From: Escherichia phage vB_EcoM_SA35RD
Reading direction: 5' to 3' (one strand)
Sequence record: OL960577.1
DNA length: 64,000 nt
The position numbers and the translations under genes are program-made. Within the stretch, counting starts at the first letter, position 1. Each line of letters opens with the position of its first letter. Below are positions 7,651 through 31,174 of the stretch, one piece after another. Below the pieces are notes generated by a model. It was not told the DNA's origin. It made no database searches and saw only the letters and a list, made by a program, of their open reading frames with translations.

Positions 7651-7821
7651 CCACATAGTACACCGTACAGAGGCTCATTTGAACTTTTAAATCGAATGGG
7701 CTTGTATGTAATAGTTCCTTCGGCTTTAGCTTTATCATAAGACTCTTTAAAACGTCTCATTCTTTCTGCTTTGCCTTTACGGATTTTATCGAAATTTTCA
7801 GAAGTCGGGATGTTCGTCATG
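7651..7821 (-). CDS. hypothetical small basic protein (about 56 aa)
   Basis: Hand-translated ORF MTNIPTSENFDKIRKGKAERMRRFKESYDK..., GAGAGG RBS; below track size cutoff. Confidence 0.3.
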
Positions 7822-7859
7822 CATAAGCACCTCTCAGAAAATGCCTAAATCAATTTCTC

Positions 7860-8081
7860 TCATCGTTTCCACCATTTCTTAACTTGAAATGAATCAACCC
7901 ACACGAGTTGTTTTGGGTCTGCCTTTACAATAGGCGGACAAATTTCTGTAATAGAACCGTCGTGATATTCCTTTTCAGAAATTTTAACACAAAGAGGACC
8001 TCCCAATTTAAGGGTGAACCCTGCGTTCAGCTTCAGACGTTTAAACTTTGTTTGAACTAGCGCCATTAATGATGTCCTCAA
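7860..8081 (-). CDS. hypothetical protein (73 aa)
   Basis: Track ORF; occupies the locus where T4 carries a-gt. Confidence 0.4.
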   Translation of the reverse strand: MRTSLMALVQTKFKRLKLNAGFTLKLGGPLCVKISEKEYHDGSITEICPPIVKADPKQLVWVDSFQVKKWWKR

Positions 8082-8364
8082 TAGCCTGACGAGTAGTAAC
8101 CCACTGGATTTTAATTAACTTGTCATTATATGGTTGTCGTAGAATATCCCGAGATTTCTTAATAGCATATTCGTAAGCTTCGAAGTTGTTTTGAATTGCT
8201 GCTTCTTGAGCATGAGCATAAAGACGGTTTAGTTCAAAACGATTCTTTTTAAGAATCTTTTCGGATTTTTTACGTGCTTCAGCTTCATTTTTCTTTTGGA
8301 TTTCTTGTAGCATTTTAGCTACTGCATCTTCTGCTTCTTTATTTTCAATAATCTCGGTAGTCAT
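8041..8364 (-). CDS. hypothetical protein (107 aa)
   Basis: Track ORF, charged helical sequence. Confidence 0.45.
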   Translation of the reverse strand: MTTEIIENKEAEDAVAKMLQEIQKKNEAEARKKSEKILKKNRFELNRLYAHAQEAAIQNNFEAYEYAIKKSRDILRQPYNDKLIKIQWVTTRQAIEDIINGASSNKV

Positions 8365-8365
8365 A

Positions 8366-8575
8366 TTATCTCATTAAATTAAAATAAAAACGTCCATCCT
8401 CTTCAATACAGAACTCATATTCAACTGGAGTCCCGTTTATCGAAAATGACACGTCATGTGGGTTCAAAGGGTCGATGTCAAAATTAATTTTAAATTCACG
8501 ACCCAACAGTTTTACCAAATAAGGGATTGCTTCGTCAAAAGGTTCTTCTAAGTAGTTAGAGATGTCAATTGTCAT
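8366..8575 (-). CDS. hypothetical protein (about 70 aa)
   Basis: Track ORF 8366..8659 trimmed to Met at 8575/8581 because upstream part overlaps gp55. Confidence 0.4.
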
Positions 8576-12555: not shown

Positions 12556-13026
12556 TTAATCATGTTTCCACACCCCATCGGTATTTGACCAAAGTCGCTG
12601 ATTATCTGATCCTCGCCACAGCTTTTTGGTCGGAAGATTTTTCTCATACTTCCCATCAATAATAACATCAACATATTTAAGCATTTCTAGTTGTTTAATA
12701 TCTTCAAACTTATATCCTGTCCACAACCAAATGCTTTTACTGGGATAAAGATTTTTTACTGTTTGAACAATGCAATGAATAACATCTCGATTATCAGGAT
12801 AGAGAGGGTCTCCTCCAGTTATAGTTAATCCTTCTATATAATCATTATTCAAACATTCAATTAATTGTTCTAGTGTCTCTCCAGTGAATGGAACACCGTT
12901 TCTAGCATTCCATGTTGATTTATTATAACATCCTTCACATTTATGCAAACAACCTGTAACGAAAAGAACGACCCTGCAACCAGGGCCATTCACAAAATCG
13001 CAAGGATAAAATCTATCATAATTCAT
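12556..13026 (-). CDS. nrdG: anaerobic ribonucleotide reductase activating protein NrdG (radical SAM)
   Basis: 156 aa; CLHKCEGCYN radical-SAM cysteine motif. Confidence 0.9.
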   Translation of the reverse strand: MNYDRFYPCDFVNGPGCRVVLFVTGCLHKCEGCYNKSTWNARNGVPFTGETLEQLIECLNNDYIEGLTITGGDPLYPDNRDVIHCIVQTVKNLYPSKSIWLWTGYKFEDIKQLEMLKYVDVIIDGKYEKNLPTKKLWRGSDNQRLWSNTDGVWKHD

Positions 13027-14840
13027 TGGTGTTTAACCCTATGCATGATTTCTTTATTTTTGCCAAGATTAAATCCGCGTTCGTTCGGATTTCCCAAATA
13101 ACCACAAGTTCTTCTTATTGTGTTCATCTTTTTAGGGTCAGTTTCTCCGCAAACTGAACAAACAAATCCGTTTTCAGTAGGAGTCATTTCATGGGTACTT
13201 CCACATGTAAAACATTTATCTACTGGCATATTAACACCAAAATAATCTAAATGTTGTGCGGCATAATCCCATACAGCCTCAAGACCTTTTAAGTTATTTT
13301 TCATATCAGGAAGTTCAACATAAGAAATGTGTCCGCCAGTCGCAATGAAATGATATGGGGCTTCGCGAGAAATCTTTTCAAACGGAGTGATATTTTCTTC
13401 TACTGAAACATGGAAACTATTAGTGTACCAGCCTTTATCAGTAACATCCTTTACACTTCCATATTTTTCAGTATCAAGTTTACAGAAGCGATAACAAAGG
13501 TTTTCAGCAGGTGTAGAATACAAACTAAAAGCAAAACCGGTTCTTTCAGTCCACTGTTTAAGATGAGCATTCATTTTAGTTAAAATTTCTTGTCCAATAT
13601 CACGACCGACAAGAATATTCAATTCGTGAATACCAATGTATCCTAGGGACACTGAACTTCTACCGTTTTTAAATAACTCAATTATATCGTCATCAGGTTT
13701 AAGACGAACCCCGAATGCACCTTCTTGGTAAAGAATAGGAGCAACAGTCGCTTTAACTCCTTTTAAGGAACTAATTCTACACATCAAAGCTTCAAAACAC
13801 AAATCCATTCGTTCATTGAACAATTCGGCAAATTTCTGTTCATTGAATTGTGTTCCAATATAAGAATCTAACGCAATGCGAGGAAGATTCAGTGTTACAA
13901 CACCAAGATTATTGCGTCCATCAAGAATTTCATTACCAGTCGAATCTTTCCATACACTCAAGAAACTACGGCAACCCATTGGAGAAACTGGAACTGAAGA
14001 ACCAGTAATAGCTTTATTATTCTTAACCGAAATAATGTCAGGATACATTCTTTTGCTTGCACATTCTAACGCAAGTTGTTTAATATCATAGTTCGGATCA
14101 TCTTTATAAAGATTAACACCTTCTTCAACGAACATAACAAGCTTAGGGAAAATAGGAGTTATTCCATCACGACCAAGGCCTTTAATGCGGTTTTTAAGAA
14201 TTGCTTTCTGAATCATTCGTTCAGTCCAGTCGGTTCCTGTACCAAATGTAATTGTTACAAAAGGAGTCTGTCCGTTTGAACTAAAGAGAGTATTTACTTC
14301 ATATTCATAAGCTTGGAATGCATCGTATACGTCTTTTTCTGTTTTAGATTGAGCATAATTCAACGCATCAGCGATTTGCCATTTTTCTGCATCTTCAACA
14401 TGTTTAGCGTATGTACGTTTAACATAAGGAGAAAGAACTTTATCGACATTTGCAAATGTAGTTCCGCCATACTGATGTGAAGCAACTTGTGCAGTAATTT
14501 GTGCCATAATTGCAGTAGCAACACCAATCGATTTAGGCGTTTCAATTTGAGCATTGCCTAATTTAAATCCATTCTCAAGCATCCCCTTTAAATCGACTAA
14601 ACAGCAATTGGTAAACGGAAGAGCAGGAGAATAATCAATATCATGCATGTGGATAATTCCACTTTCATGCGCATTCATAATAAAAGACGGGACCGTATTT
14701 TTGGCAATGTGCTTAGACACAATACCAGCCATAAGGTCCCGTTGAGTTGGAAAAACACGAGAATCTTTATTAGCATTCTCGTTTAAAAGGTCTTTATTAG
14801 TTTTATGAATTAATCCTTCAATTTCTTTTTCAATTTTCAT
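13023..14840 (-). CDS. nrdD: anaerobic ribonucleoside-triphosphate reductase NrdD
   Basis: 605 aa; C-terminal Zn-ribbon CFTCGSTHEMTPTENGFVCSVCG and glycyl radical region RRTCGYLG; uninterrupted ORF. Confidence 0.9.
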   Translation of the reverse strand: MKIEKEIEGLIHKTNKDLLNENANKDSRVFPTQRDLMAGIVSKHIAKNTVPSFIMNAHESGIIHMHDIDYSPALPFTNCCLVDLKGMLENGFKLGNAQIETPKSIGVATAIMAQITAQVASHQYGGTTFANVDKVLSPYVKRTYAKHVEDAEKWQIADALNYAQSKTEKDVYDAFQAYEYEVNTLFSSNGQTPFVTITFGTGTDWTERMIQKAILKNRIKGLGRDGITPIFPKLVMFVEEGVNLYKDDPNYDIKQLALECASKRMYPDIISVKNNKAITGSSVPVSPMGCRSFLSVWKDSTGNEILDGRNNLGVVTLNLPRIALDSYIGTQFNEQKFAELFNERMDLCFEALMCRISSLKGVKATVAPILYQEGAFGVRLKPDDDIIELFKNGRSSVSLGYIGIHELNILVGRDIGQEILTKMNAHLKQWTERTGFAFSLYSTPAENLCYRFCKLDTEKYGSVKDVTDKGWYTNSFHVSVEENITPFEKISREAPYHFIATGGHISYVELPDMKNNLKGLEAVWDYAAQHLDYFGVNMPVDKCFTCGSTHEMTPTENGFVCSVCGETDPKKMNTIRRTCGYLGNPNERGFNLGKNKEIMHRVKHQ

Positions 14841-29281: not shown

Positions 29282-29740
29282 CTAGATTTTAATCACTGCT
29301 TTAGAAGCTTTTCCTGGTAGTCGTTTACTGTTAATAATAGCCATTCTACATTGAAGAGTCTTCATTTTGAATGTCGGATTTTCGCGACAAACTGTAAGTC
29401 CTAACCAAAGATTTCCGTCAGTTATTTCTAAACGGCCTGGACGATACTCGACACCTTCGACAAAATCTTCATCAACATCTGGACGTGCCGGCATTGATAA
29501 AAATTCTGCAACTTCTTTAACGTGATTTTTTACTTTATGAAATAATTCAAAAACGTAATTCTCATCTATTTCTCTCTGGATGGCACGATCTAAGAGATGT
29601 TGAGAATACTTGATATGAAAGCCTGGTAGTCCAAGAGACTTTGCAGCATCTTTTATACCGGCATTTATTTTGCGGAACTCCGTTTCAAAGATTCGACGGA
29701 GTTTATTACGACGGATAAAAACGTCTGAATTGATAGTCAT
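29282..29740 (-). CDS. regB: RegB endoribonuclease
   Basis: 152 aa; MTINSDVFIRRNKLRR...YSQHLLDRAIQREIDE...RLPGKASKAVIK matches T4 RegB. Confidence 0.85.
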   Translation of the reverse strand: MTINSDVFIRRNKLRRIFETEFRKINAGIKDAAKSLGLPGFHIKYSQHLLDRAIQREIDENYVFELFHKVKNHVKEVAEFLSMPARPDVDEDFVEGVEYRPGRLEITDGNLWLGLTVCRENPTFKMKTLQCRMAIINSKRLPGKASKAVIKI

Positions 29741-29801: not shown

Positions 29802-30017
29802 TTATTGATAAAATGGAGTTAAAGCCCAAGATTCTTTAGATACTATATTGGCGAAATGCCTCATCTCTTCGATTTGGCGACGACGTTGGTCAGCATAGTC
29901 TTCTTCGCCTTCTTCCTTACAATCTTCAAGGTCTTCTTCAAGATACTTTAAGTATTCACTACAAATTTTGTTGACCTTTTCTTGGAAGTCCAATAACCCA
30001 GTAATAGTAGAAGCCAT
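29802..30017 (-). CDS. hypothetical acidic protein (about 71 aa)
   Basis: Track ORF 29802..30059 trimmed. Confidence 0.4.
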   Translation of the reverse strand: MASTITGLLDFQEKVNKICSEYLKYLEEDLEDCKEEGEEDYADQRRRQIEEMRHFANIVSKESWALTPFYQ

Positions 30018-30283
30018 TAGTATTTTTCCTCGGGTCGAAATACTGCACGACATGCCCACATGCTGGCTTCTTTTAGATGTTGCTTAGCATACTTAAGAGC
30101 CTGCACTGCATCCATATCTTCTTTGGTTTGTTGCTCTGTTTCATTTTCTTTCAAGATATATGCTTCTTCAATCAGAGCATCAAACATCAATCCAAGACGG
30201 ACTTCTGCATCTTTAATAGCGTTCACTTTACTGATTTTATCATCGGTATGCGGTTTGTAGCCTTTGATGTCTTCAATCGACAT
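30017..30283 (-). CDS. hypothetical protein (about 88 aa)
   Basis: Track ORF 30017..30451 trimmed to MSIEDIKGYK. Confidence 0.4.
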   Translation of the reverse strand: MSIEDIKGYKPHTDDKISKVNAIKDAEVRLGLMFDALIEEAYILKENETEQQTKEDMDAVQALKYAKQHLKEASMWACRAVFRPEEKY

Positions 30284-30497
30284 AAGGAATTTCCTCATCG
30301 GTGGCAAGGTCATATTCGACCAATTGGATAGGCTCATTAATACCATATCCACGTACAGTGATATCAGTTGTCGGATAGTTTCCAGTAATATCACCCATTC
30401 TAAATGCTTCAGTGAATGATTGCTCGCCTGAGCAACTAAACCAGGCGGCAAAACATTTTAAAACATCTTCAGACCCGTCTATAATCAATTTAGCCAT
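30273..30497 (-). CDS. hypothetical protein (74 aa)
   Basis: Track ORF. Confidence 0.45.
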   Translation of the reverse strand: MAKLIIDGSEDVLKCFAAWFSCSGEQSFTEAFRMGDITGNYPTTDITVRGYGINEPIQLVEYDLATDEEIPYVD

Positions 30498-30859
30498 TAT
30501 AGACTCTCAGTAAAGGTACGAGCGATAACGTCGCGCTGCTGTTCTGGAGTCAGAGAGTTAAAGCGAACTGCATAACCGGATACACGAATGGTCAGCTGAG
30601 GATATTTTTCCGGATGCTTAACTGCATCTTCCAGAGTTTCACGACGCAGAACGTTAACGTTCAGGTGTTGACCACCTTCAATTTTAACTTTAGGTTGATG
30701 TTCAATTTCAATTTCACGGGCGTTAAGACCGTAGAAAATTTCCGGGTCTACAATAGCGTCTTCTTTAAAAGTCTTAGAGACAATAATCCGGGCTTGAGTA
30801 CAGTCTTCAAAATAAATAGTGCCTTTGTGTGTGCCTTCAAGAATTTGATATGCTTTCAT
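30497..30859 (-). CDS. autonomous glycyl-radical cofactor (GrcA/YfiD-like)
   Basis: C-terminal [60 protein letters not shown] is the PFL-type glycyl radical domain. Confidence 0.8.
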
Positions 30860-30865
30860 ATAACC

Positions 30866-31174
30866 TCAATTAGAAAATAAATTTATCCAAGTTTTTTCTT
30901 TAATCAAAAATGGGTCGGAATTAAACGCCATTAAACTTTGAGTGATTAATCCCTTAAATGGCCCATCAATAAATTCCATTTTGAAATGCGGAATACTAGT
31001 CATCAACCGTGCATTAGGAGCAGTACAAAGAACCTGCTGCCCTGCGAACGGACCTTTAGTCAAACGATATCGTTTAGGTTTAAAATGGTAAATCTCGTAA
31101 TTTTCTACAAGGGCCCTTTTATTGCATACTGGACTGTTATAACAATACTCAAAAACTTCAATAGTGGTCATCAT
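30866..31174 (-). CDS. hypothetical protein (102 aa)
   Basis: Track ORF; stop overlaps upstream gene start. Confidence 0.45.
   Translation of the reverse strand: MMTTIEVFEYCYNSPVCNKRALVENYEIYHFKPKRYRLTKGPFAGQQVLCTAPNARLMTSIPHFKMEFIDGPFKGLITQSLMAFNSDPFLIKEKTWINLFSN

Follow-up and report, generated by a model that had tools for sequence, protein, structure and literature searches.

The radical-domain half of the T-even phage gene vs.6 is nearly identical to Escherichia coli grcA, suggesting recombination with the host gene

Escherichia phage vB_EcoM_SA35RD (sequence record OL960577.1) carries, in the stretch of 64,000 nucleotides analysed here (the window), a small gene on the minus strand at 30497-30859. 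This gene is almost certainly the ortholog of vs.6 (Y06I) of phage T4 and encodes an autonomous glycyl radical cofactor of the GrcA/YfiD type. vs.6/Y06I is already known from T4, and the function of its product is known from biochemistry. According to the account of Wagner 2001 given in PMC8683613, both YfiD of Escherichia coli (E. coli) and T4 Y06I are activated by the activating enzyme of pyruvate formate-lyase (PFL), and both bind PFL that has been cleaved by oxygen at Gly734, restoring its activity. YfiD has a structured radical domain, residues 61-127, and a disordered segment, residues 1-60, which yet aids binding to cleaved PFL and activation (PMC8683613). Here, we compared the nucleotide sequence of the phage gene with that of grcA from bacterial hosts and with its homologues in other phages. 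The half of the gene that encodes the radical domain is almost the same, base for base, as chromosomal E. coli grcA, and the other half is strongly diverged. We consider it likely that an old phage homologue of grcA had its radical-domain half overwritten, probably repeatedly, by recombination with the host gene.

Results

The locus can be described by the following features, given by their positions in the window.

30497..30859, minus strand: vs.6 / Y06I ortholog, a phage GrcA of 120 amino acids, from the list of open reading frames (ORFs), profiles and synteny
30864..30867, minus strand: GAGG ribosome-binding site of vs.6, 5-8 nucleotides 5' of the ATG, read from the sequence
30682..30859, minus strand: 5' half of vs.6, the diverged, phage-type N-terminal half of GrcA, without significant nucleotide similarity to E. 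coli grcA; guanine-plus-cytosine (GC) content 0.356
30500..30681, minus strand: block of vs.6 that is very probably host-derived, made of the last two bases of codon 60 and codons 61-120; glycyl-radical domain
30575..30577, minus strand: Gly95 codon (GGT) within the motif RVSGYAV; this glycine is predicted to carry the radical; motif position computed, with alignments to 6owr and to PflB 696-759
30497-30499, minus strand: TAA stop codon of vs.6; its last base is shared with the following ORF, whose ATG starts there

The Pfam family Gly_radical (PF01228) matches the phage protein with 67.5 bits (cutoff 22.2). The NCBIfam family TIGR04365 (GrcA) is by far the top-scoring family, with 159.1 bits, a score that lies under the equivalog cutoff of 170 because the N-terminal half of the phage protein is diverged. 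The closest solved structure is that of E. coli YfiD (PDB 6owr, E = 2.8e-42), followed by PflB residues 696-759. Residues 18-120 of the phage protein align to positions 23-126 (of 126) of the TIGR04365 profile, and residues 21-120 align to residues 27-127 of 6owr. These alignments span both halves of the protein, and therefore both are GrcA-homologous, the N-terminal half being far more diverged. An initial annotation, made from the sequence of the window alone, had called the gene a GrcA/YfiD homologue with a phage-like N-terminal half. The homology is borne out by the Pfam and 6owr matches and by TIGR04365 as the best family; the N-terminal half is diverged and of phage type, as was said, but it still belongs to GrcA. 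The protein stands alone, having its own ATG and GAGG site, with separate small ORFs on either side. Its Gly95 presumably corresponds to G102 of YfiD and to G734 of PflB; the match to G102 follows from an offset of seven residues and from established knowledge.

Its counterpart in Escherichia phage moskry, a Mosigvirus, is 98.3% identical to the gene, and T2 vs.6 is 92% identical to it. The order vs.7-vs.6-vs.5-vs.4-regB is conserved with T4 in a colinear alignment and agrees with the annotation around the gene in moskry, T2 and T4. T4 Vs.6/Y06I (NP_049730.1, 'autonomous glycyl radical cofactor GrcA') also has 120 amino acids, lies between vs.7 and vs.5, near vs.4/regB, and agrees with the present gene both in its 5' junction and in having the host-identical block. 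It differs from the present protein at 8/120 residues, seven of them in the 5' half, the eighth being T4's own R73H in the block. At the nucleotide level, the two phage genes are 88% identical in the 5' half and 96% in the block. Compared with E. coli GrcA/YfiD, the phage protein is seven residues shorter and has a strongly diverged N-terminal half, alignable from residue 18-21, whereas the C-terminal 60 residues, which include RVSGYAV, are identical. GrcA takes the place of segment 696-759 of PflB in PFL (PMC8683613); this segment has the same fold element and motif as the phage block, but its amino-acid identity to the block is only about 80%. As a separate observation in the 5' half, codon 20 (30800-30802) encodes Cys20 (FEDCTQ) in this phage and Gly in moskry, T2, T4 and all other T-even sequences examined, which makes Cys20 a private, non-synonymous change.

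The last 60 residues of the phage protein are the same as residues 68-127 of E. coli GrcA (60/60), and over the corresponding 180 nucleotides the two genes match at 174 positions (96.7%), with an exact run of 80 nucleotides. In the codon alignment, all six differences are synonymous and fall at third positions. The number of identical codons in the block is 54/60, where 24.5 are expected from the codon usage of the phage, taken from 70 other ORFs in the window (Poisson-binomial P = 4.7e-19). A block of 185 nucleotides was matched in 5,426/5,426 complete E. coli genomes, at up to 96.8% identity, and it is the sole E. coli match of the whole 64-kb window in three megablast searches of these genomes, which yielded no other host-identical segment. 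The initial annotation had stated that the last 60 or so codons are nearly identical to E. coli GrcA, which these counts confirm, and had placed the host-like stretch at 30497-30700. The stretch is present there, with true limits at 30500-30681.

Both edges of the block are abrupt. Its start lies between ATT and GAA GGT GGT, its end at the stop codon, and T4 and OES_C-2 share both limits. Upstream of the junction at codon 60/61, vs.6 does not resemble E. coli grcA significantly at the nucleotide level, and no similarity was found past the stop codon. Identity to the host gene thus changes abruptly inside one reading frame.

The composition of the gene is not uniform. The GC content of the block is 0.478, compared with 0.356 in the 5' half and 0.374 in the window, and it exceeds that of all 230 blocks of sixty codons from other ORFs of the window (maximum 0.472). 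Leucine is encoded by CTG in 5/6 block codons, CTG being 10% of leucine codons in the phage, and arginine by CGT or CGC in 6/6. GC content at third codon positions (GC3) is 0.367 in the block, compared with 0.298 on average in the phage; this value is reached by 18% of phage blocks, and we rejected GC3 as evidence of host origin. Moreover, unconverted phage homologues have a GC step of +0.02 to +0.10 at the same point, and part of the step must therefore be due to amino-acid composition. The GC-rich, host-like codons that had been remarked on in the 3' half are indeed present, but GC3 is unexceptional and the step is partly one of amino-acid composition. Composition is a weak signal of host origin and nucleotide identity is the strong one.

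The donor was sought by comparison with grcA of 80 bacterial species. E. coli grcA comes closest to the block, at 96.7% identity, ahead of that of another Escherichia species (95.6%) and of the next, Citrobacter amalonaticus (89.4%); E. coli and Citrobacter amalonaticus are themselves 92.8% identical. The phage has the E. coli state at 13/13 sites diagnostic between E. coli and Citrobacter and at 2/2 sites diagnostic between E. coli and the other Escherichia species, and these states are also found in nearly all T-even phages examined. pflB was considered as a donor and rejected, with about 80% amino-acid identity against 100% for grcA, and with pflB-type sequences at about 77% nucleotide identity. 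Among hosts, synonymous divergence (dS) of grcA in the 5' half and in the block is 0.57 and 0.36, respectively, between E. coli and Citrobacter, and 0.80 and 1.02 between E. coli and Salmonella. Host grcA thus diverges about evenly in both halves, and therefore the host gene is not the mosaic one. Phage-side changes in the block comprise 14 from GC to AT and 6 from AT to GC (P = 0.015), a drift that is expected of host DNA decaying in an AT-rich phage. Judged from these comparisons, namely the even divergence of the hosts, the host codon usage, the diagnostic sites and the AT-biased changes, the direction of transfer is from host to phage. It is very probable that the block is derived from E. 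coli and entered the phages after the split of Mosigvirus and Tequatrovirus.

When 50,697 phage records were searched with the 183 nucleotides at the 3' end of E. coli grcA, the identities of the matches were distributed bimodally: 637 records have at least 95% (three of them at least 99%), 8 have 90-95% and 864 have less than 90%. The group at 95% or more consists of Tequatrovirus and Mosigvirus, with T2 and T4 included, and its isolation hosts include Shigella, Salmonella, Citrobacter and Yersinia. Homologues of the other phage groups compared, T5-like, Krischvirus, Karamvirus-like and others, are 63-84% identical to E. coli grcA, well apart from the 96.7% of the present block. The initial annotation had read the gene as a chimera that arose by recent capture of host sequence. 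The 3' half is host-derived, as proposed, but the gene is better described as an old grcA that was partly overwritten than as a fusion. Nor is such a capture confined to this phage: T4 and T2 have the block within identical limits, and the match of 95% or more is found in 637 records.

Conservation of the radical domain is extreme across all hosts and phages compared. Homologues from Klebsiella phages have 100% identical residues, yet only about 83% nucleotide identity to any host, and therefore constraint on the protein alone is an insufficient explanation of the block. The top match between Klebsiella or Enterobacter T4-like phages and hosts is at most 88%, in a panel of 81 sequences that did not include K. 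pneumoniae. Among these phages, the homologue of Klebsiella phage Roth20 has the largest GC step of any homologue, with 0.57 in the block and 0.35 in the 5' half. Its block has three amino-acid changes and a best host match of 87.8% in the panel without K. pneumoniae grcA, and it could stem from a GC-rich host by an older capture.

Discordant histories of the two halves were seen in a set of 19 T-even sequences (isolates, IMG/VR contigs and metagenome contigs) that were compared base by base. The measures are as follows.

Mean Mosigvirus-Tequatrovirus difference: 5' half, 19.1/180; block, 3.2/170
Within-clade diversity: 5' half, 3.0-6.0; block, 2.4-3.3
Mean phage to E. coli difference: 5' half, not applicable; block, 1.2-2.0
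dS between genera: 5' half, 0.39-0.49; block (all 60 codons), 0.02-0.15

Over block positions 1-170, the 19 sequences have 0-4 differences from E. coli, and in T2 and several contigs the match to E. coli grcA is perfect for 170-173 nucleotides. In the 5' half, nucleotide identity between Mosigvirus and Tequatrovirus is 87-90%. The block is without this clade structure, and each phage lies nearer to the E. coli allele than to those of the other phages, so that the pattern is a star with the host allele at its centre. The dS between phage and E. coli in the block, 0.05-0.15, is comparable to that between the two Escherichia species, 0.045. In the alignment of the window with T4, mean identity is about 79%, and a plateau of 0.97-0.98 lies exactly across the block. 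Clade-typical or widely shared variants are found only in the last three codons (GAG, AGT, then CTA or TTG), as would be expected at the end of a tract that depends on flanking homology to either side. CrRp10 has a 5' half of Tequatrovirus type with a last codon of Mosigvirus type, and pSe_SNUABM_01 has an intermediate 5' half. Strictly fixed differences between the clades number eight in the 5' half, four of them at third positions, and zero in the block (P = 0.007). The case for homogenisation rests on mean pairwise divergence, which is more robust than fixed differences. A single ancient capture followed by vertical descent is rejected by the discordance of block and 5' half between genera.

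Two lines of argument were set aside. The mosaic of the last three codons was considered as proof of independent conversions, and recombination between phages explains it equally well. The four-gamete test in the block was dropped, as four gametes occur only with L173 (OCHD01000040.1, a metagenome contig of 170,927 bp; locus positions 7717-8531), a probable assembly chimera that was left out of the evolutionary tests. This contig is 96% identical to the window up to the block, and past the block it continues, at its very end, with at least 600 nucleotides of host-like DNA (grcA terminator, eamB side), 92.7% identical to E. coli. Two further contigs break within the block: L174 ends 100 nucleotides into it, and the sequence of L177 stops 151 nucleotides into it. 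The three cases are probably due to assembly chimerism or breakage at a shared repeat; that L173 represents a genuine larger capture of host DNA is not the reading that we favour.

A second case comes from two sister phage contigs from IMG/VR, L111 and L112 (91 and 130 kb), which share 98% identity across the 5' half of the gene. At block positions 97-171, L111 is identical to grcA of Haemophilus sp. at 73/75 sites, with an exact run of 56 nucleotides, and L112 at 62/75 (Fisher P = 0.005). The L111 tract is a second, independent case of a host match, in a different clade of phages and a different host genus, which favours more than one event.

Discussion

The observations are best accounted for as follows. 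The T-even lineage would have carried an old, diverged homologue of grcA, the radical-domain half of which (30500-30681) would have been replaced by chromosomal grcA of E. coli during infection, through homologous recombination, a gene conversion by marker rescue from host DNA. A tract of this kind would be confined to the part where the two genes are similar enough, which explains why it starts at the onset of protein conservation and ends at the stop codon. The conversion would have taken place after the genera split and probably more than once, so that the block would evolve in concert with the host gene, and phage-specific mutations, mostly from GC to AT, would build up between conversions. 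Singer et al. reportedly found, in 1982, that tens of base pairs of homology suffice for recombination in T4, and a block of 180 bp should be adequate. T4 recombines with homologous DNA that is resident in the cell, and marker rescue from plasmids is routine (PMC4872099).

One recent capture, as was initially proposed, does not fit the pattern across phage genera, which points to repeated homogenisation. We lean towards recurrent conversion templated by the host rather than one event plus spread. The main alternative, which we hold to be unlikely, is that a single capture or conversion in one T-even ancestor was followed by spread from phage to phage at co-infection, with no further input from the host. 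All phages have the same 5' junction, and most have GAG/AGT in the last codons, which speaks for such a history. Spread between phages would, however, need repeated crossovers exactly at the edge of host homology while the 5' half keeps its clade structure; host templating makes the edge of the discordant segment the edge of host homology, and under spread between phages their agreement would be a coincidence. In addition, the ancestral phage domain was probably already identical in protein, as in the Klebsiella phages, and the block would have swept without an obvious advantage at the protein level. The Haemophilus-matching tract of L111 also indicates that conversion of phage grcA by a host is not a one-off.

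Other explanations fare much worse. An ancient single capture maintained by strong purifying selection on the nucleotide sequence, through codon optimisation or a function at the level of RNA, could draw on the strong codon bias of grcA, on the E. coli-preferred codons of the block and on the extreme constraint of the domain. Equally constrained hosts nevertheless diverge silently in the block (dS of 0.36 between E. coli and Citrobacter and about 1.0 for Salmonella), phage homologues with the same protein have 83% nucleotide identity, and almost nothing lies at 90-95% in the bimodal distribution of identities; the private substitutions of phages drift to A/T and are hence tolerated. We regard this explanation as very improbable. 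We give hardly any credence to reverse transfer, in which E. coli would have taken the block from a T-even phage, or to contamination of phage assemblies with host DNA. E. coli grcA is colinear with that of other Enterobacteriaceae, with matching divergence in both halves, and the codon usage of the block is of E. coli type. Metagenome assemblies are indeed confused at the block, a 171-kb contig running into host-like DNA and two ending inside, but the block lies in frame between phage-specific flanks in hundreds of independent isolate genomes, T4 and T2 included.

Several points weigh against the reading that we favour, the repeated overwriting of an old phage gene by the host. The conversion is read from sequence patterns, and its template would be host DNA that is single-copy, contains cytosine and is being degraded by the phage. 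E. coli phages of other groups that have grcA homologues, T5-like and Krischvirus, are not converted, and Tequatroviruses from Salmonella, Citrobacter and Yersinia keep the E. coli allele, so that the block does not quickly follow each host on which a phage grows. T-even phages are mosaic, as seen in CrRp10 and pSe_SNUABM_01, and phage-phage exchange can explain the mosaic of the last three codons; a star-like pattern around the captured allele is also expected under a single event with spread between phages. The base-by-base sample comprises 19 T-even sequences, compared with 637 records, and the contrast in fixed differences at third positions alone is not significant in a larger Tequatrovirus sample (P = 0.12). 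As to the proposed function, which is taken over from the T4 ortholog, the phage protein misses the equivalog cutoff of TIGR04365 (159.1 against 170).

A broader proposition, for which we see an even chance, is that in the strictly lytic T-even phages this half of vs.6 keeps evolving in concert with grcA on the chromosome of any host that offers enough homology. Host DNA would then serve at the time of infection as a recurrent repair template, and the phage allele would track that of the host without selection on silent sites, in other phage-host pairs too, for example that of L111.

The closest analogue of this evolutionary pattern is that of the cyanophage genes psbA and psbD, in which intragenic recombination between host and phage has been described (Zeidner 2005; Sullivan 2006, PMC1484495). 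In both systems, a host-derived metabolic gene of T4-like phages has patchy G+C content and segments within the gene that were exchanged with the host. Unlike psbA/psbD, vs.6 has one block with fixed boundaries that is about 100% identical to one host species, and this block is found in over 600 genomes, from two or more genera of classical coliphages, with transfer apparently from host to phage only.

The papers that we found on vs.6 are biochemical, and none of them deals with its nucleotide-level identity to the host or with homogenisation among T-even phages; an earlier remark is possible, and the conversion pattern seems to be undescribed so far. Phages that destroy the DNA of their host keep one block of 180 bp that is nearly base-identical to the host chromosome, and they do so over hundreds of genomes and at least two genera, with neighbouring DNA diverged by 10-20%. 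If conversion is ongoing, the vs.6/grcA pair would be a simple natural reporter for the rate and the genetics of host-to-phage recombination in T4, and gene exchange of the psbA type would extend from cyanophages to coliphages. The block also has practical consequences, since it breaks or chimerises metagenome assemblies and can mislead filters for host prediction or contamination. grcA has been chosen as a core-gene target for typing of Straboviridae by polymerase chain reaction (PCR) and quantitative PCR (2026, PMC12845203). Quantitative PCR primers inside the block, in the 3' half of the gene, would amplify E. coli grcA too.

Regarding function, the orthology with T4 Vs.6 (112/120 residues identical) suggests that phage GrcA is a 'spare-part' protein for PFL. 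The PFL-activating enzyme of the host would install the radical on Gly95, and the radical domain would dock into host PFL cleaved by oxygen at Gly734 and restore its activity, so that fermentative energy metabolism would be sustained in infected cells under microaerobic or anaerobic conditions. By analogy, phage GrcA would need host PflA and PflB. The diverged N-terminal half may mean that it engages PFL differently from YfiD. A separate observation concerns Enterobacteria phage RB55 (KM607002.1), in which 13 nucleotides are deleted in the block, at about 500-520 of the locus, with loss of GYAV from the radical motif and a frameshift; the gene is unannotated there. From this deletion, vs.6 appears to be dispensable in laboratory culture.

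Neighbouring genes and other features of the window

Two more genes of the window belong to glycyl-radical chemistry.

13023-14840, minus strand: nrdD (NF006732, 902.7 bits)
12556-13026, minus strand: nrdG-like gene for a radical-SAM/Fer4_12 protein of 156 amino acids, adjoining nrdD

NrdG activates NrdD, and the two form a glycyl-radical system separate from GrcA. The initial annotation had credited the phage with its own glycyl-radical toolkit. This is right in that nrdD and the nrdG-like gene are present, but GrcA would depend on the PFL-activating enzyme and PflB of the host. No further glycyl-radical gene was found among 11 ORFs of the window scanned with profiles. The gene for the RegB endoribonuclease lies at 29282-29740 on the minus strand (PF10715, 231.6 bits); nrdD, the nrdG-like gene and regB are normal gene content for a T4-type phage.

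Two genes downstream of vs.6, the ORF at 30017-30451 on the minus strand matches the Pfam Acb2/Tad1 hairpin domain with 63 bits over residues 64-139. By position it is the counterpart of T4 vs.4, which we take to be the anti-CBASS sponge Acb2, and its true start probably lies downstream of the listed TTG. Two short patches, at 31020-31150 and at 30095-30210, have an identity to T4 of 0.41-0.54 in the alignment, inside small ORFs that are otherwise 70-90% identical. These patches are local replacements typical of the hyperplastic regions of T-even phages.

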